DNA from: Takakia lepidozioides
Taxonomy: Eukaryota; Plantae; Bryophyta
Reading direction: 5' to 3'
Assembly (NCBI GenBank): GCA_030704615.1
Contig: CM060733.1
Span: forward strand, 39,184,001 to 39,248,000
Length of the DNA: 64,000 bases
Below, piece after piece: positions 2,060 to 38,668 of the stretch (position 1 is its first letter; each line of letters starts with the position of its first letter). The notes under the pieces are model-generated. The model made no database searches. It was not told the origin of the DNA and saw only the letters and a program-made list of their open reading frames with translations. Made by a program: the position numbers and the translations under genes.

Positions 2060-2559
2060 CTAAATCTGTCACATGTCTTGACTACAGAGCAATAAGAGAA
2101 AAACAGGATCGTACTAGAAAAAGATCGCCAGCTATTCCTCATCATCATCTACTTTTTCGTAAATCTCAAAAATCTGGAAAATTTGTAACCCTTAAACGCC
2201 CAGTGGGTGTTGCCTTTTTCACAAATTGAGACTTATGCAGTGAAAAATCAAAAAAACTTTCTGAAGCTAACAGATTCCAATAAGATTGAATGGTAGCTCG
2301 TTGTTGAGTAGTACTCTTCTGGAAAAATATAGCAGACGACATAGGTTGATGGTTCCAAAGCAAATCATGTAGAGCAATTGCTGCAATCATCTATGTTGGA
2401 GCAATCCACTGTCACAAGTAGCAACCTGCTATATTCTCACTGCCATTTCTACAACACCCCTGTATTGTAGCAATGAGTCAAATCATCAATCCAGTCCTCA
2501 AACACAATTTTTTCTGGAGTGTGATGGGAACATAAACAATGAACTCATACTCAACTAAA

Positions 2560-5500: not shown

Positions 5501-5960
5501 AAAACTCCCACAACCCACATACCAGAAAGGAAGTGATAAAGTGGAAGAAGAGTAGAGTGAAAAAATGTACTGATTAACCATTCCCTATAAATGTCACCCT
5601 GGGGCAGTAGTCCCTGCAGGAAACCAACCCTCAGAGATTCCACATCGAGGTCCGACAAAAGCCTTGTGGACGGCCACGAAGCATATTGTTACAATGGGTT
5701 GACTCTTGATTTGAGAGGTCGAAATGGTAGTAAAGCACAATGTCCAGTCCAGCTAGAAACGGAGAGAAGAGAGTGCGACAAAGTCTGTGCATGTGTGCGT
5801 GCGTGTGTTTGAGAGAGAGAGAGAGAGAGAGAGAAACCTGCGATAGTCCCAACATGGAAGTTGCTGGCATCCGTTTGAGGAGCCGCTCCACACTCAAATT
5901 CGAATTGAGCCAGTAACCCATTTCCGATGGTACCACGCCCCAGATGATTTGTGAATGCTC
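2560..5960 (-). pseudogene. RGTA: Degenerate partial copy of Rab geranylgeranyltransferase alpha (exons 3-8 with introns)
   Basis: Colinear with 38669-42135 in exons, introns and 3' flank, e.g. MVSVGEGLEDEFKLAINFFLTDP, ILERHIGVCQEMLELVPDR, MGLRVLEIAGDSVQN. Contains frameshifts and deletions; exons 1-2 are absent. Confidence 0.9.
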
Positions 5961-6350
5961 TACATACCTGTCATTCACACTCTCAAATGGTCTCAGTCTC
6001 ATCAAGAGTAGCTCAGAGTCATTGGACCCATCACTCCTTTCCAAGCAATTACAAGGGCACACCCCGGGAAGTTTCATTTCGTAAGAAGATGGTTTATTTC
6101 ATATAAACTTGCTCAGTTAAGCCAAGGTAAGTACGTACATACACTCTACCCGATGGGTAGTTATATTTTGTACTGATAAGTATCGAGTCAGGACGTCACT
6201 CGCAATAAATACGATGCTCCCTCTTGGCAGATTTCACACTCAGATCCTCAAGCTCTGCGCTGTGATTGTAGCCGTCTTGTTCTTGGTTGCCGACACACAT
6301 CTGTGCAGAGATTGTGAGAAGAAGGTGTGAAGAGTCAAGAGAGCGCAGCG

Positions 6351-7640
6351 ATGGCACCTCTCAAGATGTACGGTGGTGCTAATTTCACTGGCTGTGCCCG
6401 TGTGTTGGCCACACTCTTTGAAAAGACTGAAGGGGATGACTACGTGATCGAGCCAGTGGACCTGGTAACAGGAGCTCACAGGAAGCCAGAGTTTCTTGCT
6501 CTTCAGGTCTGTAGGGTTTTGTTGTGGAGGGCCATTCATGTGTGATGTCGGATTCCTCCAAATGAGTTATGCAGATCGATCTACATCTCGTTAGCTTCTT
6601 CTCGTGACGCAATCCTACTCCGGAAGATTCTGCGGTTGTTTGACTTGTAGTTTAGTATGGCTTTGTGTTGATTGACCACCCTGAGCGTTCTCAGACGATG
6701 TTTGTCTCAGACTGAGTCGTATGCTCAACTATTGTGCGCAGCCGTTTGGACAGGTTCCAGTTGTACAGGATGGTGACTTCACGATCTTTGGTAAGTGCTA
6801 TGAACCCAAGCCTACTTCGGTTTTCAGAATAGAATTGAGGGCGATATACTGGTTTAGGGGGTAGACTGAGCTGTAGGATGATGGTAACGAACAGGGCGCC
6901 CCCTCAGTCGTCAGGGAATTCGGGGTGGATTTACTCACAGTGTCATTGTAGAAGGTGGGTATACGTTTTGGATGCATGCACGTTTTGTTGTGTGACTTGC
7001 ACTCGGTACTCTTGATATTCTTCGGGATGTCATGTATCATATAGTAGTTACCTCTTTCGCCCGAGTGGCTCAGTCTGGTGCTACCGAAAGGCTCAAAATG
7101 TCATTTACCTTGCGTCTTCGATTCTTAGAATCCTTGCATGATTGGCACGATTCGATTTCTAAGAAGGCTCGCATCTTTGCATGATTGACAGAGTCTCGTG
7201 CCATTGCAAGATACATTTCGGATAAGTATGCAAGCGAGGGCACACCTTTGTTTGGGAAGACTCTTAAAGACAAGGCCCTTGTTAACCAATGGCTTGAGGT
7301 TGAAGCACAGAACTACAACTCTCCAACCTCCACCATTGTTTATCAGATTGTATTTGGCCCATTGTATGGATCGCCTGTTGACGAGAAAGTTGTTGCGGAG
7401 AACATTTCGAAGCTGGAAAAGGTTCTGGACATTTACGAAGCACACTTGGCCAAGAGCAAGTACTTGGCGGGAGACTTTTTCAGTATGGCAGATCTTTCAC
7501 ACCTCCCTTACACTCACTATCTGGTCAACATTGCTAAGAGAGGTGATCTGATCACCTCCAGGAAGCATGTGAATGCATGGTGGGAAGATATTTCCTCCCG
7601 CCCTGCGTGGAAGAAGGTGCTCGCCATTCCCGAGTCTTAG
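6351..7640 (+). CDS. GSTF: Phi-class glutathione S-transferase, copy 2 (exons 6351-6506, 6742-6790, 7192-7640; 217 aa)
   Basis: Same exon sizes as copy 1 (156/49/449 nt), alignable introns and an open frame. N-terminus MAPLKMYGGANFTGCARV. Confidence 0.93.
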
Positions 7641-8119
7641 TAGACATAGCCCACGTGCAGAATTCAGGTGACCCCAGCCTTCCAAGAATATGTTTGTGTC
7701 AGGATCAGTTTTCAAGGAAATCCAATCTTATGGTAGGTGTGCAACTGTCCAAATTTCACCCAACATTCCAACTCAGTATGTACCAGTGTTGGACTGCTAT
7801 CAAGTTTTTTACATACCAGACTGGTCCTGGTACCAGACGTATCACAAAACTTTCATACCAGTCTGGTTTATATAATGGTGGATGTATTTTTTTCCACATG
7901 TTGGTATGAGTATGAGTAACATGACCACAATACCGGCTGGTATGCGATAGTAACTCAGGTATCATTCCACAGCCATCTTAAATTACAAGTTTATCAAATA
8001 GCAAGTATCAAGTGAAAATAAATACAATACACATAAAGAAGTAAATATACGTAAGTACGAGTATGTAGGCATATGTACACATAAATTAATATAGTACACA
8101 TACCAGAGTAAATAGGAAA

Positions 8120-8241
8120 CAGGGAAGTTCCCCTACTGTTAGCCTTCAGGCCCTGCAGTGGTTAATTTTGCCACTGATGTGACTCTTTTATTATTAATTT
8201 GATTAAAAAGGCTTCCATCCCCTTTAATTAAAAAAAAAAAA
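8120..8241 (+). mobile_element. 5'-truncated LINE 3' tail with poly(A)
   Basis: gggaagttcccc...cagtgg-N9-ccactgatgt...atttgattaaaa...cccctt...A(n) matches the 3' end of the LINE at 27895-28205. Confidence 0.6.
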
Positions 8242-9084
8242 TGAGGAAGACAGCAGCGGAGTATTGGTATTGTGGCTGGTATGAAAAAACTGATACCGGC
8301 CTGGTCTGCTCCCAAATGATACCAGATTGGTCTGGTTTGTAGTACCAGTGCATATAACCCATATATATGTCAATCCTTCACCTATATATGCCAGCAGTGG
8401 TATCTACCTTACATTGTGATAAGGTCCTTAATCCCAACAACCAATCTGGTCTTGCCACATGCGGTCAACGTGGACTTTGCAAACGTTTTTTCTAAACCCT
8501 TGGGTTTCTAGGAATTCATTAAAATCTTTAATTACAACCTAAAATGTGATATGGTGACAACCCAATTTTGGGTTTAGGGTTGTATTTAGGGTCTGGTAGT
8601 GACGAGGATTTTAATTTGCCCAGCTGAGCCAATTTTTATTTTATTTTATTTCATTTCATTTGAAAACCTGGACCCACCAATTTCAATCATAATTTGTACC
8701 AATGATATCCATTTAGAAAGTTATAGGAAAAATCTTTCTTTAGAATTTATGTTTTGACAAATATTTCAAAGTTTATTAATAACAAATGCATGGAAAACAT
8801 GCAAGCCCTACCCTACTCAACACAAGGGACTGTTACGGCATGCATAAAATTATTCATCCAAGGATATCTCAATATATGAAGCGAGACGTTTGTTTTGTTT
8901 GTTTGTTTTGTAGATTTGAGATGTACCAAACCGCGGGGCCAGCCTTGGTGCTTGGTACCGTTGGAAAGCCCTAGATGAGGAGGGGTGCACCGACTTGGTC
9001 TCATGATTTTTGGACCTGCGGTGTGGGAGATGTTGAATTTCAAGTACTTTTGGTTGCTGAAAATTCCCAAAAAATAAGAAAGTG

Positions 9085-10330: not shown

Positions 10331-10439
10331 CCCATGGCACGCCCACCGCCAACTCTACCCCACGGTATGCAGGCCTTCAGAACATTATGTCTGGCACCCA
10401 TATAATCATATTGCGTGTCTCTCTTCAGGCCACAATAAC

Positions 10440-11945
10440 GTAATGACACTAGTTGTTAGAAATGTTTCAAGCCATAGCACACCACAATTGGAGCAATTGG
10501 CAAGGAGATAGGCCCATCTGAGTACTTGAACGTCCGGAAACTTGAACACCAAATGCAGATCTGTTGGGGACCAGACCACAACCCCTTAAGGAAATTCAGA
10601 GCTCAAGAGGCCACCATAATGTGATCACACTAATTGTTAGAAATGTTTCAAGCCGTAGCACACCACAATTGGAGCAATTGGCAAGAAGATAGGCCCATCT
10701 GAGTACTTGAACGTCTGGAAACTTGAACTACAAGTGCAGATTTGTTGGGGGCCAGACCACAACCCCTTAAGAAACTTCGGATCTCAGGAGGACACCATCA
10801 CGTGATCACACTAGTTGTTAGAAATATTTCAAGCCATAACACACCACAATTGGAGCAATTGGCAAGGAGATAGGTCCATCTGCGGAAACTTGAACAACAA
10901 GTGCAGATCTGTTGGGGGCCAGACCACAACCCTTTAAGGAACTTCAGAGCTCAAGAGGCCACCATAATGTGATTACACTAGTTGTTAGAAATGTTTCAAG
11001 CCATAGCACACCACAATTGGAACAATTGGCAAGGAGATAGGCCCATCTGAGTACTTGAACGTCTGGAAACTTGAACAACAAGTGCAGATCTGTTGGGGGC
11101 CAGACCACAACCCCTTAAGGAACTTCAGAGCTCAAGAGGCCACCATAATGTGATTACACTAGTTGTTAGAAATGTTTCAAGCCATAGCACACCACAATTG
11201 GAACAATTGGCAAGGAGATAGGCCCATCTGAGTACTTGAACGTCTGGAAACTTGAACAACAAGTGCAGATCTGTTGGGGGCCAGACCACAACCCCTTAAG
11301 GAACTTCAGAGCTTAGGAAGCCACCAAAACGTGATTACACTAGTTGTTAGAAATATTTCAAGCCATAGCACACCACAATTGGAGCAATTGGCAAGGAGAT
11401 AGGCCCATCTGAGTACGTGAACATCCGGAAACTTGAACAACAAGTGCAGATCTGTTGGGGGCCAGACCACAACCCCTTAATAAAATTCAGAGCTCTAGAG
11501 GCCACCATACCTTGATCACACTAGTTGTTAGAAATATTTCAAGCCATAGTACACCACAATTGGAGCAATTGGCAAGAAGAGAGATCCATTTGAGTACCTA
11601 AACGACTGGAAACTTGAACAGCAAGTACAAATCTGCTGGGGGCCAGACCACAACCCCTTAAGAACGTCCAAAGCTCTGAAGGCCACCGTATGTTGATCAT
11701 ACTTGTTGTTAGAAATGTGCCAAGCCATAGCACACCACAAATGGAGAATTGGCAAGAAGATAGGCCCATCAAAGTAGTTGAGTCTGGAAACTTGAACAAC
11801 AAGTGCATCTATACTGGGGGCCAGACCACAACCCCTTGAAAATCTTTATGGCTCTGAAGGCTAGCATATCTTCATCACCATACTTAAACCACCAAGCCAT
11901 AACACACCCAAATTGGAGAAATTGGCATGAAGATAGGGCACAACA
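10440..11945. repeat. 181-bp tandem (satellite-like) array, ~8.3 copies
   Basis: cta(g/a)ttgttagaaat anchors at 10449, 10630, 10811, 10978, 11159, 11340, 11521 and 11702. Period is 181 nt, with one 167-nt unit carrying a 14-nt deletion. Confidence 0.97.
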
Positions 11946-11949
11946 TAAT

Positions 11950-12577
11950 TGAATGTGACTCGATCTGGCTCCAACCCCTGTTGATGTGCATTTGCTCACA
12001 GGTCTCCAAAGCCTCCATCCCCCATATCCATGTTGTGCATGTCCTGCAATCATATCACTTCAGAACACCACATCTCGTTTACCCATCAAACACTTCATTT
12101 GCATCCACAGTGCTTCCACATGTGGCACACGTATCAATAAGGGTATTGTTCAGAATGACATCTGGTACTATTCCAGCCTTGATGATGTCACCATGGACCT
12201 CTTTTCCCTTCATGAATATATAAATGGTTCAGCCCTAGAATACAACTTCCTGGCAATGGTGCCCCTAAAGAATCGGCAATAGAAGACCCAAGCCTGGAGC
12301 GACCTCCTGCAGCAAAAGCATAAGAAATGAAGAGGGTATGAGCGAGATTGATGGAGAGTTGGAAAGCGCTTGGGCGTGGACTAATGAGAAGCAGACAATG
12401 TGAAAGAAAGATGGGGTAGAAAAGAGGGTGGAGAGGACGATATTGAGGGTCGTATGAGAAAGCTAGGAAGCTGTCGAGCTTCAACCCTCCTCGCATCGAT
12501 TGCGCGCATGTCTCCAAAGCTGTTGAGTTCAACCATCCCCGCATTGCTTGAGCGCAAGTGGTCTCTAAAGCTTCCAT
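11950..12577 (-). pseudogene. PLS-class PPR gene fragments
   Basis: 12201-11950 decodes, with stops and frameshifts, as EVHGDIIKAGIVPDVILNNTLIDTCATCGSTVDANEVFDG/KRDVVF*SDMIAGHAQHGYG/EALETCEQMH/QQGLEPDRVTF, a typical L-S-P motif series. EALETCAQ-like pieces also occur at ~12460-12577. Confidence 0.8.
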
Positions 12578-13369
12578 CTCGGACCCTAGCTATGCACCTG
12601 CAAATCATCCCATGACACAAACAAAGAAAAACGACCAAGTCCAAGACTCATCGTTCAACACACAACCCCGCAACCCTAAATCTATTTTGAATTATTTTGA
12701 ACTTTTATTGGATAGTACATTTTTTGTTACCCCAGTGGTTTGGGGCTCAAATCCTGCTACGTCCTTTTTATATGTGGTACGGTATGTGAATTTCACTTTA
12801 TTGTAATGAGTGCAATGTTAACTTTTATATGAAGCGGTAGTAGAAATCGGTAAAGGCAGGCCAAAATGAACTAATTAATATGACCAAATTTAAATTATGT
12901 AATGCATGTTTGGCCATATCCGGGTCATATGAAACCTCTTTGACGTAGTTTTTGGGGGGATAGCTTCAGGGCTTACAATACTACCCACCTACACCTCATT
13001 TTTGGGCTCTTGCAAAAAGTCTATAGATTTTTCCAAAGTATATTAGATTATTTATTTATTTATTTTTATAAAAAAACAAAAAAAGGAAACACCTAGGAGC
13101 TACAGCTCACAAATCAGGCTTATCTACTAGATGTGACATATACAAATTTGAATGAAATGTAAACAACTATTGTCAAGCTTGTAGTGAATTCAATTATTTG
13201 GAAATTTTATTTCTGGGAACTGGCTTAATTTATTTTCATTCTAAAATTCATCGTTGAAGTTTGGACATTGGAGAAAATGCAAATTTTGATGGTCTACGGG
13301 CACCCTCTACCTTATCAGATCAGCCCATACCTAGGTCATTAGATGGTGCCATGGCTCTAAGTAGAAAAG

Positions 13370-13957
13370 AGGTGGTTATGTTGGCTATCATATTTCAAGC
13401 TAGTTTCGTATGACCAAACATTATTCCAGTTGAGGAAAGTGCTTCAGAGAATGAATACTGTGATTCAGATTCAGAATAAAGTTGATTGTTTGGAACCATC
13501 TATTCAATAACATCATCCTACAATGATTTGGACACTTGTATGTTTTCTAAAGTGTGCCACAGGTGCACAAACCACTTAAACATTTTCATGTATCACCACA
13601 AGAGTGGTACCACTCACTAAGGTATTTTTAACCACTCACAATCTACCACCGCCCAAGTGATACCAATCATTGCGGTGTCTTTAACCACTCACTATGTACC
13701 ACTGTCCAAGTGGTACTAATCATTGAAGTATCTTTAGCCACATAACATTCTAGAACTAACATGAGATATTGAAGACCTGGCTATGTTGGCTAGCTGCATT
13801 CAAACGGCATTTGTACAACCAACCGCTATTCCAGTTAAGGAAGTGATTTAGAGGGTGACGAATATGTTTCAGATTCAGAATAAAGTTTATTGTTGGAACC
13901 ATTTATTCAATAGTATCATCCTACAATGGTCTGGACACTTTTCATGTATCACCACAA
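13370..13957. repeat. Imperfect direct duplication (~180 bp, period ~405)
   Basis: tattccagtt...cagattcagaataaagtt...catcctacaatg...ggacactt occurs at ~13423-13537 and at ~13828-13940. Confidence 0.7.
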
Positions 13958-14478
13958 CAATTTAAAAAATCGTAAGGCTCCACATCCAATGGCATGTTGT
14001 ATCGGTAGTACTCGTATCCCGTGGGCATATTGTCTTGCAACCCAAACACCTCGTAGAGACGACGATGGATTGGTCCACGACAGTCAGGGCATTGGCTAGC
14101 TCGCATGGCTGCCGATATGAGACATGTGGGGTGAAACAAATGGCCACATGAACCAAGCATATAGTCTCCCTCCGGTCCGTAAGGGTTTAGGCACATTGTG
14201 CACACCGTATCATCTATTACCCATGACGGTGGATTGCTCCGTGGCTGGCTTGTGCATGGATTGCAACTCAATCCATCCGCATCCCTATAGACCAAACCCA
14301 GTCGATACACAACCTGAACATGTCTCTCATGCTCCTCCACCGTAGCACGAGAGGCAAAGCAATTCCTGTAAGCCCTCAGGAACTGCCGTATATGTCGTCT
14401 TTCTCCTCCAGTGACAATGGGTCCAATGTCAGGCTCTCAATTGTCCTCCGTAACTGCAACCTTAAGTCCAGTAGACTT
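13942..14478 (-). pseudogene. Downstream remnant of the DNMT retroelement: pre-RT, RT and RNaseH patches fused in frame to a RING-H2 domain
   Basis: ERRHIRQFLRAYRNCFA, SRATVEEHERHV, QVVYRLGLVYRDADGLSCNP, then CTMC-x14-CGHLFHPTC-x10-CPDC (C3H2C3). Confidence 0.7.
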
Positions 14479-15111
14479 TGTCACGGACATAGCCCAGAGG
14501 AACTTACCAGGAGTAAATACCAGAAGTTATCAAGTTATCATGTTACCAAAAGTTACCACGACTTACCGTGATTTACCATGATCTACCATGATTTACCATT
14601 ACTTACCAAATTACCGGGAGTTTACCAAATTATCAAGAGTAACTTGGGAAACTACTCAGGAAGCTTCTTTTGGAGGAAACTTCTCCATCAAGATACCTCA
14701 TTTGTTTAAAGAAGCTTCTCCATCAAGAAACCTTTGTTTAATTTTGGAAACTTCTCCAGCAAGAAACCTCCATAGGGGAAGCTTCTTGGGGAAGCTTTTT
14801 AGTAGCCAGTATATATAGGAGGCGAGACTGGACACTCTTCAGTCTCGCCAACACAAGTTCAAACTACTCTTGTTCCAAGTCCAGTACTCCAATCCAGTCC
14901 AGTTTCTAGTATCTGGTATTCCAGTCCAGTTTCCAGCATTCCAGTATTCGAGTCGAGTTCCAGTATTGTACTCTTGTCCATTGTTATAAAGATCATCTTG
15001 ATTCATGTTCACCTACCATGCATTCGGCCACGCCGACCTTGACTTCTTGTCTAGTCTTGTACCTCTAGTCTGATCTCTTGTTTGTGTTCTGTCATGTTCT
15101 CGTCCTTGACA
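14479..15111 (+). repeat. 5' LTR (633 bp)
   Basis: Begins TGTCACGG and ends CCTTGACA. TATA box at ~14810-14817. The 3' half matches 20040-20305. Confidence 0.93.
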
Positions 15112-15149
15112 GTTTGGCGAGACTAAAGTTTGTTCTTTAGTTAGTTAAG

Positions 15150-16230
15150 ATGGAAGGCACATTTGCGAAAATGGTCACCACATTGCAGAGTCTTCAGCTC
15201 CAGATGCAAGAACTTCGTACATCTACCAACCAATTGCAAGCTGATCAGTCTCAAGATCTTGGCAACGCTCTCCACAATTTGCAACAACAAATTTCAGAGT
15301 TAAAAGAGTCGAACAATGGATCTTCATCCATACGAGTCCCTACTCCAACAGCTCATACTGCAACGGTTCATCTTTAACAGATTACGAAAGAACCAAAGAT
15401 TAGCATGCCCGAGAAATTTGATGGGACGAGATCAAGATTTCGCGGTTTTGTTCAACATGTACGACTGTTCCTACGACTACATCCACAACGCTATCCCGAT
15501 GAAGGTATTCAAGTGGGATTCGTGGGCACCCTTCTGTCAGGCACTGCCCTATCTTGGTTTACACCGCTATTAGAAAAAAAAATCACATTTACTATACAAT
15601 TTTGAAGCATTCATGTCCGAGTTCACTGCAACGTTTGGAAAAAATGATAGAGAAAGAGTTGCAGAAACAAAGATGTGAAATCTTCGACAAGGAGTACGTC
15701 CTGCTTCTATTTATGCTGCCAAATTTCGACAACTTGCGTGCGACCTCGACTGGAATGAGAAGAGTCTCATTAGTCAGTTTCAATGTGGACTAAAAGATGA
15801 TGTAAAAGATTTGTTGATGACAATGCCAAACGTGAGCACACTAAGTGAATTCATCATCCAAGTCATTGCATGCGATAATCGTTTGTTTGAAAGACGTAAA
15901 GAGAAGCGATCTGGATGGTCTACGACGCATCATGCCACTGATGGTCTACGACACCAAACGCAACGATCCATCAGACATCCAGTAGTGATCCTATGCAGAT
16001 TGATGCTGTCTGATTCAAGCCATTGATGTCACAAGAAAAACAAAGACGGCGCTCGAATGGATTATGTCTCTATTGCGGAGAAGAAGATCACATAGCATTA
16101 AACTGCCCCAACAAGAGAAGATTCAAAGCTCGGGGCACAACTTAAGTGTTCGATACGAGGAAATTCCTTACCGAAAAAAGATCTCTTTCTACCTCCAGAC
16201 CATGCTCCTTGCTTCACAGTTCCGGTAAAA
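15150..16230 (+). pseudogene. gag: Chromovirus gag (frameshifted)
   Basis: Coiled-coil N-terminus, retrotrans_gag-like PEKFDG...ALSWF...FRQLACDLDWNE, and a CCHC knuckle at ~16066-16107. Confidence 0.85.
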
Positions 16231-16236
16231 ATCAGA

Positions 16237-19200
16237 GTGCAAAATCGAGATATCACTGTAAAAACACTTTTGGACTCAGGAGCTTCTGCTTGTTTTATGG
16301 ACAAAAACTTTGCGAAGCAAAACAATTTAACGCTCGTAAAGAAAAAACTCTCGGCCCCCGTTGAAGTCATCGATGGACGACCATTAGCATCAGGAAATGT
16401 GGACCATGAAACTCGACCACCTGAAGTGAAGCTTAAAGATCAAGCATCACATATTGTTTTCAATGTCATCCAGTCTCTAACGAATTATGTGATCCTTGGA
16501 CTTCCCTGGTTCGTACTTCACAATCCCGACATCGACTGGCGATCGCGAAAAATTTCTACAAGACAAAAATGTAGAAATATCAAAGGTATTCAACCCCTAT
16601 TTCTTGGAGCTAGAGCTTTTATGAGAGCTACCAAAAAAGAGGCGACATTTGCATTTTATGCGACTCCGATCAAGACCACAACAGACAAAGGTACTTCAAC
16701 ATTACCCGCTCAATATCAAGATTTCAAAGATGTCTTCGAGAAGAAAAATGCAGATATATTGCCAGAACATCGACCCTATGACTATGCAATTGAGTTACAA
16801 GGAGTCCAACCACCATTCGGCCCAATTTATAACTTATCCCAGACGGAGTTGGCTGCATTACGTGAATACATTGATGAAAATTTGTCAAAGCACTTCATCC
16901 GACATTCAAAATCACCCGCGGGGGCGCCTATCTTGTTTGTGAAAAAGCAGGACGGATCATTACGCATGTGTGTCGACTATCGCGGTCTCAACAAAGTCAC
17001 AATCAAGAATCGTTATCCGTTGCCGCTGATTTCTGGGTTTCTCGACCAGCTGGGACGAGCGAAGATTTTCACCAAAATCGACTTGAGATGAGCTTATAAC
17101 CTTGTACAGATAAAAGAAGGAAACGAATGGAAAACAACTTTTCGAACAAGGTATGGACATTTTGAATACAGTGTTATGCCTTTCGATTTTACAAATGCTC
17201 CAGCAATTTTCCAACATATGATGAATGACATCTTTCGAGAATTTTGAGATGACTTTATAGTCATCTATTTGGACGACATTTTGATATTTTCTCAGAATGA
17301 AGAAGAACATGGCCACCATGTACGCCTTGTCCTTGATAAATTAAGAGAAAAATGACTATATGTCAAGTTGGAGAAATGTCTTTTCCATCAATCTGAGGTC
17401 GAATTTTTGGGCTACATTATTTTCGACAAATGCGTCTTTATGGATCAGAAGAAAATACAAACCATCATCGAGTGGATTAAACCAACTTCGGTCCGAGATG
17501 TACAATGTTTTCTGGGCTTTGCAAATTCCTATAGAATCTTCATCAATGACTACTCCAAAATTGTTGCACCATTGACACGACTCACAGGGAAGGACAAATT
17601 TGTATGGGACGAGAAGGCTGACCAGACATTTGAAAGGCTGAAGCAGGCATTTACAACGGCTCCCATACTGGTACATGCAGACCCATCTAAACCATTCTTC
17701 ATAGAAGCAGATGCATCAGACTTGCGGTACTCTCTCAATATGGTACAAATGGCCGACTCCACCCTGTTGGTTTTCGTTCTCGCAAAATTTTCGCTGCGGA
17801 GATCAATTATGGAATCCATGACAAAGAACTTCTATCGATTATCGATGCTTTTGAGGAGTGGCGACATCTATTGGAGGGAGCTAAACATCGGGTTACTGTC
17901 TACACCGATTACAAAAACCTCGAATATTTTATAAGTGCTCATGTTTTGAATCGACGTCAAGCGAGATGGAGTATGTCATTAGCAAGGTTTGATTTTGTTA
18001 TTACCTACCGTCCCGGACATCTTCAAGAAAAATCAGATGCTCTCTCTCGACGATCGTATCTTGTGCCAAGAGAAGGGATAACCAACAAAAATCCATCATC
18101 CTGAAACCAACAAATCTCCAATTGAATATGTTATCCATGTCCACCTATGATGATGCAGAGATCGTAAATGAGATTCAATAAGCACTGAAGAACGACCATT
18201 TTGCTACGACACTACGAAGTCAACTAAATCAACCTCGAGACAACCCACATATTACAAACGACTTCAAATTCAAAGATGACTTACTTTATTTCAAGGGACT
18301 TCTCTATGTACCTCCAGGACCTACACGAATTCGAATTCTTCAAACATGTCATGATCTTCCGGCTGCAGGACATTTCGGCTTCAACAAAACATTGGAGTTG
18401 GTATCCAGGGACTATTGGTGGCCGCAGATGTGGAAACTCGTGAAAGAATTTATAAAATCTTGCGACACGTGTGCTAGAGCAAAGGGACCACGACATCGAC
18501 CTTACGGCCTTCTTCAACCATTACCCATTCCCAAGGGTCTACGGTCGTCCGTGTCTATAGACTTTATTACGGACCTTCCAATTTCCAAGACCACCGATTC
18601 AATCCTTGTTATTGTAGATCATTTTACGAAGATGACACATTTCATTCCATGTAATAAGACGGTTACCGGCGAGGAAACTGCAAGACTCTTCCTCAATAAT
18701 ATCTATCGCATTCATGGACTCCCGAAGGACATCGTATCGAACCACAGTTCATATCAAATTTCTGGAGGAGATTATTTCACATATTGGATACTAAGATCAA
18801 TCTCTCTACAACTAATCATCCACAGACTGATGGTCAAACTGAACGTGTAAACCAGATTTTGGAGTAGTATCTTCGTTGTACGATAAATTATCACCAAGAT
18901 AATTGGACGGACCAGGACAGGACGACGATAGTGATGTTTGTATGTCCCGTCGAAAAAGCCACACACGATCTCCGACCTTGAACTGGGGTTGGAGTTGGCG
19001 ACGTTGATCTGCATACTCTTTGTATTGTTTTTGAGCTTCTGCGAGGTGGGATGTAAGCTCCTTGTGAATTGTAGCAAGATGAGTAGCAAGGTTTTCTATA
19101 GCAGGGCTTCCAACAGTTTTCATGTGGAAAGGGTTTGCTTGAGAATGATGACCATAATTGGAGAAAAATGGAGTTTGCTTGGTCGAAGAATATATAATGT

Positions 19201-19610
19201 TGTTGTAGGCAAACTCAGCCACGCGACCATCAAAGAAGTTGGATTATCAACGTCTGGGACCATTCAAAATTATACGACAAATAAATCCGGTCAGTTTTCA
19301 GCTTGAACTCCCACGAAGTATGCGCATCCATCCAGTATTTCATGTTTCACTATTGGAGTTGTATCATCCATCGAATATTCCAGGGAGAGTTTCCGTACCA
19401 CCTCCACCAATCGAAATCAATTAGGAAATTGAGTATGAAGTCGACGAAGTCCTAGACTCTCGCATCAAGTATAAACGTCTTGAGTATTTCGTACATTGGA
19501 AAGGCTACAACATCAACGAACGAATGTGAGAACGTTCATCTAACCTCGTCAATGCCTCTGACAAAGTCCAAGAGTTTCATCAACAATATCCAGCTAAGCC
19601 CCGAGAATGA
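16237..19610 (+). pseudogene. pol: Chromovirus pol (PR-RT-RH-IN-chromodomain) with stops and an internal inversion
   Basis: ORFs 16237-17091, 17368-17934, 17871-18104, 18392-18850 and 19239-19424 carry Ty3 pol motifs. The segment ~18930-19222 reads on the minus strand. Confidence 0.92.
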
Positions 19611-20039
19611 GACGTCACAACGATGATGTCAGCCAAGCTAGCTTCAAGGAGAAGACTCAACATTCAATGTACCTGATACACGCTAAGGAGGGAGGAACAC
19701 CACACATCAGTATATATAACTACACTTCTAACACTCTTGCATCTTGTATTGGCAGCATGGAATCACAAGAACCAGATACATTGGAGTTGTCGCTTACCCA
19801 ACTACCAGATCAGCCATTCTGACTCTCACGACCTTCAACATCACGTCGACACTCTCGAGACAATGGGCCACCAATGCGACACATACTTCCTCGTCTGGAC
19901 CCCGTACGACAGCAAGTGGAGCCTACTCGAAGTCTGATAATTCTGTTGGAGGTGAGGCTTCGGACCCAGAGGGCAACGAAATCATGTTTGAAGGCAGCTT
20001 CGAAAATTAGAATGCTCAAATTACTACGTGATCCCAAGT

Positions 20040-20305
20040 TAGGAGGCGAGACTGGACACTCTTCAGTCTCGCCAACACAAGTTCAAGCTACTCTTGTTCC
20101 AAGTCCAGTACTCCAGTCCAGTTTCCAGCATTCCAGTATCCGAGTCGAGTTCCAGTATTTTGTACTCTTGTCCATTGTTATAAATATCATCTTGATTCAT
20201 GTTCACCTACCATGCATTCGGCCACGCCGACCTTGACTTCTTGTCTAGTCTTGTACCTCTAGTCTAATATCTTGTTTGTGTTCTGTCATGTTCTCGTCCT
20301 TGACA
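20040..20305 (+). repeat. 3' LTR lacking its U3 part
   Basis: Near-identical to 14817-15111 apart from a short internal deletion. No match to 14479-14815. Confidence 0.9.
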
Positions 20306-20599
20306 GATTTAGAGGTAGATGACGCGTCCAGTGGTTGCTATGCTGCAACCTCTTGAGCAGTACTTCATGCCTGCTCAGTCAATGACAAGGCCTCATCCTG
20401 CCCCATCATCTCATCCTTGAGGACCTTCTCAACCCAAGAAGAATCCCCAACCTCATCCATCACCGCCGCCTTGGCTGCCAACTCCCTCTGAACCTCGAGC
20501 ACCTCCCACGTGTGCCATGGTTGTCTGCACCCTGTGGTCCTCACCGGCTCGTCCCCACTCACTATATTTACCGTCTCGGTAGGCAGAGAGACCATTGAG

Positions 20600-21570
20600 G
20601 GAAGTGCGCATTGCTCAGCCATAGCCAAGCTGATAATGCAGGTCAGGCAATTGAGATCCATCGCTTGCCCCAACACCTGACGACGTGATGCCTCAGAAAG
20701 AGAAGGCACCGCCGTGGTCCCAGTGAAAAAACCCATAGCCCGTTTGCACTCTTTGACATTAGGCTCCACTAACTGCTGCAACTGAGCATCCTACAGGAGG
20801 CCAGGTCCACTATCCCGAAAAGCATGCGATCCTGGGAAGCCGAGTAGTGTAGATAATGCTGCTCGTGGTTGACCCACCTTGTTGACCACTGCCAAAGGCG
20901 AACGGTCATCGTGTCTCACACGCTGAGACTTCCTCCATGTGTCCAAGATGCTATCCACTGTGAGGTGTGCTGGCCGCTGCACCTCATCAAATGCACGCTT
21001 GAGCAGTGCAGGTGACATCAAGTTAGTCCACCATAGCCATGGACGATGAGCCCGTGACCCCACTGCAGCTGCATCCAGCAACACTGCTGACCCAAGCTAC
21101 GACCGGACTTGATGCACACTGACCATCACCCTGGCCCGAGAATCGTCCACCAGTGGCACATTCTCCAAGATGTATGCTAGAGATACAGCTTGATGAAGCT
21201 GTAAGTGGGGCAAAATCTGCACCATCTCCCAAAACAGACCCGACTTCGAGTCTCGCAATCCATTGCCATGCCTGACTGATGAATACCCTTGGCAGGGCCA
21301 ACCTGCCACTACCAAATCAATGGAGCCAATCCGCTCCAAATCATTTGCCCCCAGCAACGAAATGTCTGCTGGCAAGACCTGTTGATATCCACGAACTGCA
21401 GACACCGACAACAACTCAGGGTATTGCTGTACCAATTAAGTAACATGGCGTAGGGAGACACGTCGTGCAGTCTCATCCCTCTCCACATACAGGTAACGCC
21501 GTACTTGTACACCTACCTGAAGCACAACAGTCAATCCGGTGTTGATCCCGCCAAACAAGCCCGGAAAGCA
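20600..21570 (-). pseudogene. C5 cytosine DNA methyltransferase domain (DNMT3-like) within the retroelement polyprotein
   Basis: Motif I GLFGGI; II YVERD; III ADI; IV IDLVVAGWPCQG; V SGLFWE; VI YILENV; VIII AHRPWLWWTNL; IX VKECKRAMGF; X RRQVLGQAMD. Linear motif order, interrupted only by in-frame stops. Confidence 0.9.
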
Positions 21571-22919
21571 AATGTCTTCATCTGGATACTACCACACGAT
21601 AGGTGTGGTGTCCAATGGTGACAACTGAGGTGGTCCTGGTCCAATCCCCACACTGTCCTCCTCTCCTGACGGTACAAAAGCCTCTACCCAGGTTTGTTGC
21701 ACCTGTCGATCATCAACCCGCTGCAAATCCTTGCTCGTGCCCCACAATGGAGTCTGAGCAACCATGGAAGGCAACTCCGCCATACCATGCATGTCATCCT
21801 GCTCTCCCGGAGGTGACACATCCTCTGAATGAGTGTTGTCATCCAACAACTCTCCAAGCCAAGTCACTGCAGCTGTGAATGCTGCCAGTGTCGGCATATT
21901 GCCTCGCTGGGCAACCGCAATTCCTCCTATGAACGTCACGAGGAGCTGCACATGCCGGTCGTCCCCTAACTGCCATCCAGGCCTATAGAAAGCTGACTCC
22001 TCCAAAAAATCCAGGGTGAAGCCCATGGGGTACAGTACTGCCCCACCAACCAGGACATCGTACGAGACCGCGTCTGTCACAATGGCCTTGGCTCTTATCA
22101 GTGAGCTATCTGTAGGATGATCCGGCTGTAGTTTGATAGCCAACTCACGTCGTGTCATGCCTCGAGCCTGCTCTGATCCTCCCAGAGATGTCTGTATCTG
22201 AAAAGGGCACGGCTCCATATTCGCCTCCATGAGGCCCAAGCCTGCAATAACAGCTTTGCCCAACATCAATGGCTGAGCTCCCGAGTCCAACAAGACCCGC
22301 AGTGGCCGGTACCTCTTACCTGCCGGTCCACTCAAACAGAAAATGTCATCCTGGTTGTCTAACATGACAACTCCAGGTGTCACCATGGCGCGCTCAATGG
22401 CTGGCCTAGCTGACAGCTCCATCAACTTAGCAGCTGCAGCTTGTCATGGCGCCGCCGTGGCAGTCTTGACCCTCAAATCCGAGGATCCCTCCGGCACTAC
22501 ACCTCCCACTATCTCTGCAGAAGATGAAGTAATCTCCCCACTCTCACAGAGTGTAGCTGCCAGCCTGAACATCTCAGCTGGTTTTACCCCCGACGTCGCA
22601 ATCATGGTAGCCGAGAACAATGGAGCCTGACACATAGATGTGGTTGCCCCCAGCAGCACACTAGCTGTAGCCTTGGCAGCACTAAGTAGTGTGTGCTGCC
22701 CGTGTAGTTCTTCCCAATAGCATAATAACCTCCGTCTCGGTAACAGTCGGGCGAGAACTAGGTGCCATGGATGACGTCGACACTGTCTCCGCCAATATGA
22801 ATGACTGAGGAAGCTTTGCCTGACGGCTTGCCTCCCCTCGTTGTGAATCCAACTCCACATCTGCACCTTGTGGCTAAGGAACTCGTGCTGCTCCTCGAGT
22901 CAAGGCAGCAGCAGACTTC

Positions 22920-23092
22920 ACCTGCACTAGTGGTAGTGTTGTCCCATAGTGGTAGTAGTAGTGCTGCCCTGCACTAGTGGTAGTGGTGCCCCACCCATAG
23001 TGGTGGTAGGTAGTGGCACCGCTCATTAGTGGTAGTGGTGGCCCGCACACAATGGTAGTGGCACCCCTCACTAGTGGTAGTGCTGACCCGCA
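22920..23092. repeat. Short degenerate minisatellite (ctagtggtagtg-based) in the Gag-protease linker
   Basis: ctagtggtagtg or tagtggtag repeated about 8 times. Confidence 0.6.
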
Positions 23093-25481
23093 CATGAATC
23101 CCATACCTCCCATGTCTCCTCCCTCAAGAGTAGGAGGTGGACCATCCGGCCTTGGAGCCGGTACTACCTGAGCTATGGCCATGGCAGCGAGCCTCTGCTC
23201 TAGCTGCTGAAGCCGGTTGGCCATGCCTTGGTCACCACCCTGACCTCCACGTCCCTGGTCATGTTGAGCTTGCCCTTGGCCTGCCCCTCGTGCCTAGCTA
23301 CCTCGTCCTCTCTGGGCTGCTCCACCTCGCCCCCGGCCACCATTGTTCCCTTGGAACTGGCTTGGGCGCAACTCAGGATGCAAACCATAACACTGGGCCT
23401 CTCAATGCCCGTACTTGCCACAATGCCCACACTGCAACTGTGCAGGCTGTGCCGGTGCTAAACCATTGCCTCCCTCTGGGCAATCCTTCTTGACATGGGG
23501 TCCTCCACATGTCCAACACACCACATCTGTCCGTTGTTGGCCTGCAAATTACGGAAGAGATCCATGCATCTGCTATGTTACGCAAAAACTGAGACACCCA
23601 ATCCTGCAAATAACCCATTTTGAAAGATGGTGAACAGAGATACAGAGCCCGGTGAAGTCACTCCCTATCACTTGTATAGGGCACGTGAGATAAATGAGTA
23701 TTTTGTAGGGGGGTATGTTACTTAAGGTATTTTTTACTACCCTATAATTACATAATTTTGTAATATGGTGAATTTTTGGCATGCTATTCTAATTATAATT
23801 TTTGTTTCAAATAAATATTAGACACCGTATATTAAAATAATACAATAAAAGATTTTTACAAGACAAATGAATTTATTATTTGGTTAAAATAAATTCATTT
23901 TATTCGCATCATCAGCATTCAAAGTATAAACGTTTTGCGCTCTATCGAAATCACAGTGACTGAACTAATAATTGAGTCTACATCTCACTTGTTGTCGGTA
24001 TTATCATATTTGAATTTAAATTGTCCTCTAGATTTTGAGAAGTAGTTTAATAACACCATGGTGTGGTTGGTCTATTTAGGAGATCAATAGGCTGTCGCGA
24101 TATCCCCCACCTGCTCCCTGCCTTCCTTCTCATTTTTTGAATCCTATATAGCCACCATTTTACCAGTAAGCTACATACAAATACCTATATCCTTCCGCTA
24201 AGAACATATATATATTTTTGCAAGGAGCCGGATCTCACCTTAGGTAATTTGAGGTCACCTTACAAGAGCCATATTACAGGCTGATAAATGAGACAATGCT
24301 CCTCAATATTGATAGCCCCCAAAATCGCCATTCAGATCGTCTCAAGTATCTTGCTGCAATACCCTTACCCGTGCTGATACCCCGCCTTGCCCCCATATAC
24401 CGGTCCAACACTGGTTCCAAACCCTCGATGTTCATGAGTGCATGAGATATGTTACTAAGATCAATCTGCTCCTTGGTCATAGATACTAGTTTTGGATTTG
24501 TGTGACTTTCATGACTTGTATTTGTGTGACTTAGTATTTGGTACACATCATCTGGTGTTGGAGGATTCAGCTGAAGAGTAGACTTAATTTCGAGCTAGTC
24601 TTCTGCATCGTATTGTAACATGATCGGGGTTTTTCCCAAAGGGAGTTTTATCCTTCACTCAAATTGCAGAGTAAGGTTTTCTCCCTTGGGTTTTTTCATC
24701 CCTCTCATGCGGGATGCATAGTGATATTAGGCATAGTGTAGGACTGGTGTAAGCTTCGGCTTTTATAATTTGATTAGCTCGCTGGAGCTCGCTCTTCCAG
24801 CAGGGCAGGCTTTACATATGTGGGGCCCTCGAGTCCAAAAAAATCCAGATTCCATTCTGTCAGGGGATGTAAAATGAAGGGTAGTTGGATCATTTAGTAG
24901 CAATCTACAATTGGTTCATGACTATTGGCACATGTTAACAGTAACATGATCGGCCAAGTTGTCTGCTGATGTGTGATGAGGGATTAAGGTAATCAAGGCA
25001 AATAGGGCCCACCTCCCAAAGGGGGCATAGCCGTGAGGCGAAGTGGCTCTTAGTTATGCCGGCGAGAGGATTGCGGATGTGGCGGGCGTCTATCGACGAT
25101 CGACTAATCAAGGAAACCAATCAATTGTATGCCACCTGTTGTTCTAGATTACCCTTATTTTATTATAAAAAGCTGGGTGTCAGGCCGAAAGCAAGATGAG
25201 CAGTGTGGAGTGGATGTGAATGTCATGATGCTTTTGCATGTCTTATGATTGGTCCAGCAGTTTGTGTCCTCTGGAATAGGATCCCGTCTCTCTAGCTTAG
25301 CAGGTTCTACTCGCTAACTTTTCTTTGTGTGCCCCGGCCCTGAGAGGAAAGGGGAATATCCCATGGGTAGAGAAACATGCTTTACTGTTTTGATCCCTGA
25401 TCTGCCGTTCATCCGCCATCCCACTTTCATCCATCATCCACTTAAAACCATCGTTACCCTAAAACCAACGTTATCACCACA

Positions 25482-25512
<31 letters not shown>

Positions 25513-25519
25513 GAGCTTG

Positions 25520-28205
25520 GAAGGCAGTAGCCCTTGTGGTGAAGAGACACCATAATTTACGCACGAAGAAATAATGCAATCACCAAATGTCTGGAAGTGT
25601 GTCAGTTTCAATTGCAAAGAGGGCAGGAAGGTCCCCATATGATGGCCTCATGTACAACAGTGAAGAGGAATCTGTCCTTACTGCTGCACGAAAGGGAATA
25701 GTTTATGAGGATAAAAACTGGGGTCTCACAAAGGAGAGAAAATGAACAAGTATTTTTTTGCCAAGCCGGCTCAAAGGAGATCGGCTACACTAATTCCAGC
25801 TCTTCGTGACCCTCTCTCAGGGCCGCTCACAGATAGCCCAAGGAACATGGCCTCAGTAGCTGCAGGGTATTTTCAACAGTTGTTCCAAAGGCAGGAGGAC
25901 TCTGCCCTCAAGGATCAGGCCAAAAAGACCCTTCTTCACCACATTCCATGTGCCTTATCTGACATGGATAAAGGGTCCCTGGCAGCTCCTTTCACCATGG
26001 ATGAGTTGGGTAGGGCTGTGGAGTCTATGGCTTCCTTGAAATTGTCTGGGTTGGATGGCTTACCAATTGAGTTCTTCAAAGTAATAATGTGGCAAACTAT
26101 TGGAGATGAGTTTCTATCTATAGTCAATGACATACTGGAAAAGAAACTTATGCCATCTCAACTCTGTGAAGGGCAGAAAACTCTGTATTACAAAAAGGGG
26201 GACAGGGACTGTGTGGCCAATTACCGCCTTATCACATTGCTCAATTCAACATACAAAATTGTGGCAAAAGCACTTGCAATGAGGCTGCAACCCCTGCTGC
26301 CACAGATCATTAGGATGGACCAGACTGGCCTTTTTCTGAAGGATTGTATGATACTTGACAACATCTTGTTGGCTTATGAGGCCCTGCACAAAGCTGAGAT
26401 TAATAACCAACCGCTCGCCTTCTTGATGCTGGATTTCGATAAGGCGTTCGACTCTATAGACTGGCATTTCCTTTTGAAAGCTCTGGACAAATCAGGACTC
26501 TGAGGCCCTTTCACCACCTGGGTTCATATCCTCCTGCACTCGGCCTCAAGCAGGGTAATGGTAAACGGGGTCATCTCAAAATCCTTTCCCATCTCCAGGT
26601 CTGTGCGGCAGGGAAACCCATTAGCACTGTTCCTTTTTCTGATTGCTGCAAACTCATTGGGTCATCTGCTAGATCACAGACTTGATATTCTGGGGCTCCA
26701 TTTGCCAACTCTACAACCAGAGTCAATGTATGCAAATGACACCTCTCTGCTCCTTGACAACTCCACCTGGGGTAATATTGAAAGAGCCCTGCAGGCCCTG
26801 CAGACTTTCTGCCTCGGCTCCGGTCTCAAAGTCAACTGGAGAAAGTCAGTGGACATCTTGTCAATTATGCATAGTGGGGCAGCAGTTGGTCACTACCATC
26901 CATTGGGGGGGGGGGGAAGACATTGGATTGAGGTGGTTGCAGGCTGGGGAGTCACACAAGCTGCTGGGTCATCTAATGGGTCACCACCTATCGCAGCTCC
27001 TTTAGTGAAGGAGGATGGTTATACAAATTTGTGGACAAAGGAAGACTCCCCATCCATCTGGCTCCCTCCGGAGGAGGCTTCTAGATTTTCACACAGGGTT
27101 CCTGTGCTACTTCATTCTCCAGATGCTGAGCATTCATGCAATCAGCGTGCCTACTGGATGATAACTCGCCCATGTCCACCATGAGCAAAGGTATACGACA
27201 GAGCTGGAGCCCTTATTTTGAAGGCACAGTTCTGTGTGCCAGGATAAACTGTTGAGCTTAAAATTGATTGAAGCTCGATCAATATCTAGTGGTGACGTGC
27301 TCGGCACCTACCTTCCCGACTTGCGCTTTACCTGGCAGATCACCATCCCCCCTCAATGGGAAATCCCCTGGTGAAGGTGAAGAAGCAGACTTCAATTGGC
27401 GCCAAAAAAAAACAAGAGATCACAAGTCTAGAGCTCAGCTAAAATTTTGATACCTCAAGCTCCTCGGGCAGATCTCCCTCAATCCCTGGATTGTGGCAGA
27501 TCTCTCTGAATTTCGGGGTATCAGCAACTCTCCTCCAGCATCGTCCTCCCTCAGCTCCAGGACTCTTGGCTAGGGTCGGCACTCCTTTTTTAGATCCCAA
27601 TGCTACAGTTCTGATTTCAGAGCTTTATATTGTACTCATAAGACGTTGTTTGCCGTAGCCTTGTGCCATTGACCCCGCGCCCAGTTTCAGAGCTTTATAG
27701 TACACTAGCAGCGGGATTCTTGTTCCTCCTCCCCTTACTCTCTGCACTCTGCCCCTCTATTATCCTTTGGCTTAAGCTCATAATTCTACATTCTCATGAA
27801 CGCGCCTAGGATCCCATCTTACTATCCTCATAGATCTTTGCTCTCTCTCGTCACTTCCGATCCTTTGCTTCAGTAGCTTGTGTGCTAGGGTGCGGGGGAA
27901 GTTTCCCCCATTAAGTCTTCATGGCAGTGGTTATTTTTTCCACTGATGTTGACAATCTTTTATTGGCTCTCTTGTAGAGAGAGACTTTGCGGAGAGATGC
28001 AAGTCAATGGAGAAACTGTGGTCAGAGTACCATACACCATGTCAAGGCGCTGATTGCTGTGTTGGGCTGAGTCATGCTCCCTACTCTTGCCTTCATCTTA
28101 TGTTGTTCCAAAGTAAAGCAAGAGAGCCAATTGCCGTTTGAGGCTTGTTAATTTGATTAAAAGGGGCGAGTCCGTCCCCTTTCTCTAAGAAAAAATAAAA
28201 TAAAA
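25520..28205 (+). mobile_element. 5'-truncated, decayed LINE (L1/Tx1-like RT)
   Basis: SGLDGLPIEFFK, NYRLITLLNSTYKIVAK, LDFDKAFDSIDW, SVRQGNPLA, MYANDT (degenerate YADD), SGLKVNWRKS. A-rich tail at 28189-28205. Confidence 0.9.
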
Positions 28206-31300: not shown

Positions 31301-31798
31301 CAGGTTGATGCCCATGAGGGTGGAAAGCGAGAATTTCTAAACATCAGAAAGGAGTGAAAACTCCAACCCTCCAGCAAGTGAGGTGCTTCATTTATAGAGG
31401 GTAGTTGGGGAAAAGGGAGAGAGAGAGCAACAATTTCACTCAAGTGCGCTTTGTATTGCTGCATGATAGGCTCGCTACAAATCAACATTCGCATGGAGTT
31501 GGTGGTTGACAGGTCATATGTGTGTGGTGGGTGTGAACAGGTGCATCCTCACACATCGATAGAGGACTTGGATGAGTTGTCCTCATTGTTGCAAGTGCCA
31601 TTGGTGGCAGGCACAGTCAACCGAGGAAGTGAGGTAGTAGGTGCCGGACTTGTTGTCAATGACTGGACTGCATTTTGCGGGTTGGACACCACAGCGACCG
31701 AGCTGTCAGTGATAGAGAGTGTATTTAAGCTGCGGGAAGCTCAGCCTAGTGCCATTGTCAATGACATGCGGGCTTCTCTCATTGACAGCATGTCATGA
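28374..31798 (+). CDS. EIF6: Eukaryotic translation initiation factor 6 (exons 28374-28383, 28499-28595, 28905-28990, 29433-29477, 29678-29808, 30421-30531, 31541-31798; 245 aa)
   Basis: [26 protein letters not shown]...GNKNGLLLP...[12 protein letters not shown]...[30 protein letters not shown]...SLIDSMS*. Exons sum to 738 nt and all introns are GT-AG. Confidence 0.96.
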
Positions 31799-38040: not shown

Positions 38041-38668
38041 GCAATTGCTGATTTATTCCTCACCATTCCCCCACCTCCTGCAGATGTAGTCCCTAATTTA
38101 TTTTCTGTCTACATTGGCAAAAAAGGGTACATCCCTGTCCCTCCTAGGCTTTGCCTGCCTTGTTGATGTGATGTTTTTCCTGCTTAAATATATTGCCCAT
38201 TACTTCCTACACTACCAGGGAAGACGTTTACTTTCCTTGAAGATCCAAAGCAGATCCCGTAGAGCAGTTGTTGAAATCATCCACGCATCCACTGTTAGAT
38301 ACATTGTAAAACATCAAAGTAATCCACTGTCAAACAATACATGTCACAACTAGCAACCTGCTGTATACTCACTGCCATTTCTACACAACCCCTGTATTCG
38401 AGCAGGCTAAGAAATAAATGGACCGAACATGTTTGGACAACTCACCAAAGTAGCAAGGGTTGATGATATATAAAGATAAAGCAACAAAAGAATGAGCACA
38501 TTAATGATGCGTCAAATCATCAGTTTGATCCTCGGATACTGTATCTTCTTCACAGTTTTCTGTGGGGTGTGACGGGAACATCAAAATTGGACCCATACTC
38601 ACAAAATTTCAGTGTAAATGTCTCTGCACAATCCGTCTCTTCTCATAGATGAGATGAACATTGACCTG

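Follow-up and report, generated by a model that had tools for sequence, protein, structure and literature searches.

Among described systems, the closest to the locus treated here is KnitGypsy-Dnmt3 of Klebsormidium nitens, a Gypsy-type retrotransposon in which a DNA methyltransferase (DNMT) lies within the Pol open reading frame (ORF) (de Mendoza et al. 2018, PMC5890265) and whose terminal repeats are DIRS-like (Fig. 4 legend, PMC5890265). The locus itself lies in a 64,000-nucleotide stretch of the moss Takakia lepidozioides (assembly GCA_030704615.1, contig CM060733.1, positions 39,184,001 to 39,248,000), referred to below as the window and used for all coordinates. It comprises a decayed DNMT-Gypsy element on the minus strand (the outer element), a chromovirus nested within it, and a RING-H2 finger that follows in the same frame. 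As far as the published description of KnitGypsy-Dnmt3 allows the two to be likened, the outer element resembles it in having an intronless C5 DNMT in a Gypsy-type coding region and a streptophyte host. It differs in that the copy is dead, deleted, and without integrase or ends, and in that its host is a seed-free land plant. In addition, a conserved stop that is likely read through separates the DNMT from the reverse transcriptase (RT) here, whereas the DNMT of KnitGypsy-Dnmt3 is within the Pol ORF.

Further relatives are hypothetical proteins of Marchantia polymorpha and Sphagnum troendelagicum (named P0002–P0027). A search with a 112-amino acid (aa) piece of the DNMT (E ≤ 1e-8; 390 candidates) yielded 28 family proteins with 39–66% identity in the DNMT. 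These polyproteins have the same domain order as the outer element, namely Gag knuckle, protease, DNMT, linker, RT, and RNase H, but none of the 28 lists a RING, and they continue with their own sequence after the RNase H end. For instance, the RNase H end of P0019 runs on into an integrase-like stretch (recognised by eye). Judged from its sequence, the locus appears to be a further DNMT-Gypsy copy of an already described kind.

An original prediction, made from the nucleotides of the window, held that excising the nested chromovirus restores one frame from the DNMT through RT and RNase H remnants into an intact RING, and that the RING is either a second module of the DNMT family or was fused to a deleted derivative. 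The locus is most likely a dead mosaic in which the frame shared by the DNMT-Gypsy element and the RING arose as a chance junction, and a functional protein was likely never made from the fused frame. Domain calls across the window were made with Pfam and alignments to relatives with tblastn or blastp. Contigs came from the sequencing-run assemblies X1, X2, X4, X6, X9, and X10, of which X1, X2, and X4 represent one sample, and statements on contig junctions refer to the contig records listed.

A Foreign RING-H2 Fragment

The RING lies within 287 bp (13958–14244, minus strand) that derive from a foreign RING-H2 gene present in multiple copies, the finger itself occupying 14080–14202. By its sequence the finger is of the RING-H2 class. 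All eight ligands are present with a spacing of 2-14-1-2-2-10-2, and PF13639 is matched with an E value of 2e-8 (34.7 bits against a cut-off of 27.3), so that the intact C3H2C3 finger of the original prediction stands.

The protein relatives of the fragment were sought with HMMER among 1.84 billion representatives, which gave 373 matches at E ≤ 0.001 and 60 at E ≤ 1e-10. The best 150 matches were taken further and, together with 13 cluster members, make up a set of 163 proteins. The family pattern fits 52 of these, 21 of which are at least 500 aa long. The best relatives are 44–58% identical over the RING and the ~40 residues that follow it, and it is over this span that the family of P0029 and the metagenomic locus L002 is alike. 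Members are 570 to 1185 aa long and lack RT, DNMT, and integrase, whereas the window keeps only ~95 residues, without the relatives’ N-terminal domain, their predicted coiled-coil region (by eye), or their C-terminal domain, and without hAT sequence. The top relative, P0029 (1077 aa), aligns through aa 722–811 only, at 14229–13960, with 58% identity.

Alignments to the RING family span at most ~14244–13960, apart from two of low identity that begin farther upstream. Beyond 14244 in that direction, none of the 163 proteins matches (best E 0.46). Conversely, none of the 163 matches the family Pol/DNMT, the nested RT, RNase H, integrase, or a hAT transposase (blastp, E ≤ 0.01), and Pfam applied to 41 of the 150 matches returned RING families only. 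No alignment match was found among 1070 candidates of 1886–5000 aa, the size class of a fused polyprotein, which is weak evidence. Other searches were likewise negative: a word-index search with the 95-aa RING piece gave five candidates and no matches, a scan of viral contigs for the RING family gave 33 pattern matches and none confirmed, and none of ten RING clusters examined carries an informative name. A protein atlas held no usable match to the N-terminal domain of P0029, and only generic RING clusters, with scores under 0.9, for aa 800–1050 of the L002 protein. The RING is not covered by contigs of X9 and X10, which are guessed to be RNA-derived; this is not evidence on expression.

Contigs place the upstream edge of the fragment at 14244. 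There, 18 X1 contigs depart from the window and continue like the Marchantia proteins P0002, P0008, and P0019 (compared by eye), while RING-bearing contigs of X1 and X6 lead upstream of 14244 into other DNA. For example, X1 record 5 stops matching at 14244, and X6 record 14 matches 14135–14244 only and has 741 non-matching letters upstream. At the other edge, X6 record 10 matches 13958–14072 only and has 414 non-matching letters past 13958. Summed contig depth, which is not copy number, falls about tenfold or more at 14244: from 260,781–781,033 over 14242–14470 to 10,486–25,752 over 13963–14241 in X1, and from 174–704 to 15–37 over the same intervals in X6. No listed contig bridges 14244. The contig departures and the fall in depth therefore indicate that the RING belongs to a different repeat, of which 287 bp remain here, truncated on both sides. 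Together with the absence of a RING from the 28 family proteins and of Pol/DNMT likeness from the 163 RING proteins, this contradicts the proposal that a RING module belongs to the DNMT family at this place; elsewhere the RING is found in a repeat unrelated to that family, with relatives that lack RT, DNMT, and integrase.

Linker, RT, and RNase H Remnants and the Shared Frame

Three remnants, all on the minus strand, lie between the nested chromovirus and the RING, and each had been correctly recognised. The pre-RT linker (14352–14473) contains a patch (14448–14353) that is 62.5% identical to aa 1150–1181 of P0027 and 57% identical to P0002. It is followed by a 36-bp RT remnant from just past the catalytic motif (14313–14348), identified from an X9 contig that retains RT letters and from loose contig ends, and by the C-terminal remnant of RNase H (14244–14318), where a patch at 14331–14221 is 49% identical to aa 1096–1132 of P0002.

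Most of the RT and RNase H was lost through two deletions that preserved the frame, as had been proposed. At the first, the 3 letters that separate 14348 from 14352 in the window are replaced by 570 in a single X9 contig, so that the window shows a net loss of 567 bp or 189 codons of RT; loose contig ends fall at 14352 in 43 X1 contigs and at 14348 in 24. At the second, X6 has loose ends at both 14313 and 14318, and X9 has them at 14313. The 6 bp of 14313–14318 belong to both remnants, RT and RNase H, and this microhomology preserves the frame because its codon phase is identical on either side. Microhomology of this sort is typical of illegitimate recombination.

The claim of one frame from the DNMT to the RING holds as regards the shared phase, but the frame is closed by seven stops between the protease and the RING (21591, 21438, 21099, 20793, 20367, 20340, and 14439). 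The stop at 14439 reflects decay of this copy, since 726,010 of 727,002 of the X1 depth differs from the window at that codon. The last open stretch, which was the ORF of the original prediction, starts at a GTG; its first ATG, at 14196, comes after the first RING cysteine at 14202, leaving no ATG before that residue. Past a fourth junction, at 13958, the RING frame is closed after five codons by a non-coding repeat (13367–13957, unstranded) with a period of ~400 bp, in which 13367–13537 and 13772–13940 are 78% alike. Contigs step back 380–381 bases at 13940, and the repeat forms a tandem array elsewhere.

The Nested Chromovirus

The linker is split by a decayed, chromodomain-bearing Ty3/Gypsy element on the plus strand (14479–20305) with TG..CA ends. 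Its Pfam domains follow the Gypsy order: gag, protease, RT, RNase H, integrase zinc finger, SH3, and chromodomain, the last near 19425–19526. The element thus shows the Gag-PR-RT-RH-INT order, C-terminal chromodomain, TG..CA termini, and target duplication of a chromovirus, a group that includes the Tcn1 clade of seed-free plants (PMC2864245). Its coding region is disrupted by stops and frame changes. The 5′ long terminal repeat (LTR) spans 14479–15111 (633 bp), while the 3′ LTR is reduced to its last ~270 bp (20040–20305), the first ~340 bp being gone; the remnant differs from the 5′ LTR by five substitutions and two indels. About 430 bp between the chromodomain stop and the 3′ LTR remnant (19600–20305 region) are unassigned. 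Contigs of all four runs link 18913–18937 to 19221–19224 across opposite strands, suggestive of an inversion of ~290 bp in the integrase of the nested copy.

The element is flanked by a 5-bp target-site duplication (unstranded), with a left copy at 14474–14478 that matches the right copy at 20306–20310 at four of five bases. The element plus one copy of the duplication amounts to 5832 bp, or 1944 codons, and the separately translated sides of the outer element share a frame because this length is a multiple of three. Contigs from three of four runs (X1, X4, and X6) join 14472 to 20309 with four letters between, a net skip of 5832; the empty site therefore exists in other copies. That excision of the chromovirus restores the shared phase is accordingly borne out.

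The Outer Element and a Candidate Readthrough Stop

The 5′ part of the outer element (all features on the minus strand) begins with a Gag zinc-knuckle remnant at 23177–23557, aligned by tblastn to aa 290–415 of P0006. A comparison of aa 1–300 of P0006 with the window gave nothing beyond noise at E > 0.6, and contig depth drops past 23648. The copy lacks the first ~290 aa of Gag and its 5′ end and, over its whole length, both ends and the integrase. The pre-protease region and aspartic protease (LLDSG motif; 21943–22677) are 44–55% identical to family polyproteins, with a weak Pfam match to gag-asp_proteas (E 0.027). The C5 cytosine methyltransferase domain (20611–21624; PF00145 E 7e-11 on 21100–21435) is intronless and collinear with the protease, RT, and RNase H remnants. 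It keeps the PCQ and ENV motifs, yet it is interrupted by the stops at 21591, 21438, 21099, and 20793. A scan of viral contigs for the DNMT family with P0016 matched nothing.

The stop at 20340 stands at the family’s conserved ORF end. Fourteen family proteins have a QAMDL motif, and five of them (P0006, P0011, P0012, P0016, and P0023) end 95–98 aa later, at positions that align with the window TAG; three of these are closely related proteins from Marchantia and do not count as independent. The other nine come from gene models that skip the region, or are shorter or more distant. In the window the stop reads TAG CAA CCA (20332–20340), a UAG-CARYYA context of the kind that promotes readthrough in tobacco mosaic virus (PMC4132726, PMC3441728); contexts of this type occur at 21 of the 5728 stop triplets in the window. 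Leaky gag-pol stops are also known in LTR retrotransposons (PMC4132726, PMC3441728). The candidate is like the tobacco mosaic virus type in that CAA CCA follows the stop and the same frame goes on into Pol domains, and unlike leaky gag-pol stops in that it sits after the protease and DNMT and not after Gag. Programmed readthrough from the DNMT into the RT is rather likely on this sequence evidence, the context having been observed in this single copy.

The RING Family and hAT Transposons

A metagenome scan for the RING family gave 37 pattern matches and four loci, none of which has RT or DNMT similarity. L004 was rejected as a family member, being a weak generic RING match (E 2e-6). L002 is the sole locus with long flanks (4.8 kb upstream and 5.2 kb downstream). 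It holds an intact 1185-aa RING ORF (4819–8373, plus strand), head-to-head with an intact 1040-aa transposase (DUF659 E 1e-32; Dimer_Tnp_hAT E 4e-10). CGGACG arrays occur at 1–300 and 4061–4470 and, inverted, at 8701–8860 and 11201–11480; the locus begins within the left array, and its left end is apparently off the contig. L003, which is too short to give transposase context, shares these arrays (1–340) and, ahead of its RING ORF, a block that is 69% alike. A hAT transposase within shared motif arrays was thus seen at one of the four loci, L002.

Outside the RING, the family has no Pfam names. It is probably an accessory gene of hAT transposons, because the RING ORF of L002 pairs with a hAT transposase inside shared arrays; alternatively, L002 may consist of two adjacent elements that share the motif. 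The main texts of PMC5890265, PMC12344493, and bioRxiv 10.64898/2026.05.21.726589 contain no mention of a RING, and passages of bioRxiv 10.1101/363937 hold nothing relevant. No description of a RING in DNMT retrotransposons, or of a hAT-borne RING gene, was found in the literature searched, outside which lay most subscription papers and Repbase.

Origin of the Mosaic

In the preferred explanation, the mosaic is a DNMT-Gypsy copy that lacks most of its RT and RNase H, all of its integrase, and both ends, abuts a 287-bp scrap of an unrelated RING gene, itself probably an accessory gene of hAT transposons, and is split by a chromovirus. The following series of events may be inferred. The Gypsy copy and a RING-carrying element would have been brought together, probably by insertion of one in or beside the other. 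Deletions by illegitimate recombination would then have removed 567 bp of RT, next the RT-RNase H span at the in-phase 6-bp microhomology, next the stretch between the end of RNase H and a point midway in the RING gene, and lastly the final ~265 codons of that gene. In whatever order relative to these deletions and to each other, the chromovirus would have inserted into the linker, and point mutation would have added stops. The proposal that a RING from another source was joined to a deleted derivative thus fits as a matter of anatomy, but there is no sign that the fusion was translated or multiplied.

Several observations weigh against a chance junction. A minority subfamily that bridges 14244 could still exist, since bridging was judged among the contig records listed. 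Moreover, X1 seems to lack the window allele (its entire depth at 14007 and 14058 carries a different letter), which leaves the junction without a positive control. Three successive junctions keep the frame, which would be expected in 1 of 27 cases if they were independent and unselected; this figure is tempered by the finding having been chosen for its in-frame property and by one junction being explained by microhomology. The RING has kept its eight ligands, whereas four stops interrupt the DNMT. As for the source of the RING, the hAT link comes from one long-flank locus and one with arrays only, of four, none tied to Takakia; the window has no hAT transposase (tblastn, none at E < 1) and no comparable motif array, and the 741 letters upstream in X6 record 14 are of unread content.

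It is unlikely that the RING ORF is an accessory gene that some DNMT-Gypsy copies carry in their 3′ region after the integrase, and that an internal deletion moved it to the RNase H end. Extra 3′ ORFs do occur in plant Gypsy elements, strand and order are as expected, and the RING stretch is multi-copy at about a tenth or less of the family’s summed depth, as would fit a subfamily. Set against this, none of the four RING loci matches RT or DNMT, the only one with long flanks has a hAT transposase, and no second LTR-like repeat was found to join the 5′ and 3′ flanks of the locus. Decidedly less probable is a deleted non-autonomous derivative into which the RING was taken in frame, which yielded a Gag-PR-DNMT-(readthrough)-RING protein and multiplied into a subfamily before the present copy decayed. 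The three frame-keeping junctions, the intact ligands, and the position of the RING downstream of a likely readthrough stop would suit such a history. However, no listed contig spans 14244, 14348/14352, or 14313/14318 with at least 31 letters on each side, and family contigs depart from the window at every junction. Microhomology accounts for one in-frame deletion, the copy lacks its 5′ end and N-terminal Gag, and no fused protein turned up in the protein searches. It is similarly doubtful that such a derivative, with a RING taken from the accessory gene of a hAT transposon and placed downstream of a programmed readthrough stop, made a low-level Gag-protease-DNMT-RING protein that joined DNA methylation to ubiquitin ligase activity, and spread as a non-autonomous subfamily.

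Finally, it is highly improbable that a capture-prone element (a Helitron or Pack-type element) gathered the pieces, with the AT-rich repeated flanks as its ends. The fragments of several repeats do lie in one orientation, and both flanks are moderately repeated, but none of the six hairpin-CTRR candidates in the window lies at 11.9–13.6 kb or 23.5–25.7 kb, and neither terminal inverted repeats nor other terminal repeats were found between the flanks.

Genomic Setting

The window consists of repeat-rich eukaryotic DNA plus host genes (glutathione S-transferase, eIF-6, and GTP cyclohydrolase II). The flanks of the mosaic are AT-rich and moderately repeated in contigs. Some 181-bp units, about eight in tandem, lie at 10421–11937. 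Beyond the other flank is an RT remnant (25715–27184, plus strand) interrupted by one stop; that it is like a long interspersed nuclear element is a guess. An inverted repeat with ~2-kb arms, 92% alike (28901–30859 and 33324–35274), surrounds a 2.5-kb centre, and exons of eIF-6 (30355–30693 and 31382–31795) lie in and beside its left arm.

Duplications are also found. The glutathione S-transferase gene is present twice (63–1503 and 6203–7625, 79% alike), and a segment is duplicated 36 kb apart (2503–5987 and 38551–42155, 73–87% alike), the right copy of which contains prenyltransferase alpha repeats, leucine-rich repeats, and an exact 264-bp tandem duplication (39535–40062). Host gene pieces comprise DUF4487 (37222–38019), a short-chain dehydrogenase (56841–57608), and GTP cyclohydrolase II (61725–63338).

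Biological Significance

Should the preferred explanation hold, the DNMT-RING fusion is of little weight, having arisen as a by-product when repeats decayed, and the locus is a clear case of deletions yielding a tempting in-frame chimera. The candidate readthrough stop and the putative hAT-RING gene weigh more than the fusion itself. A leaky stop, if true, would allow the DNMT to be made at Gag-like levels and the RT-integrase at a fraction of them, which would fit a DNMT packaged in particles to methylate new cDNA. A hAT-borne RING-H2 gene of seed-free plants, if true, would be a candidate transposon-encoded ubiquitin ligase directed against host silencing.

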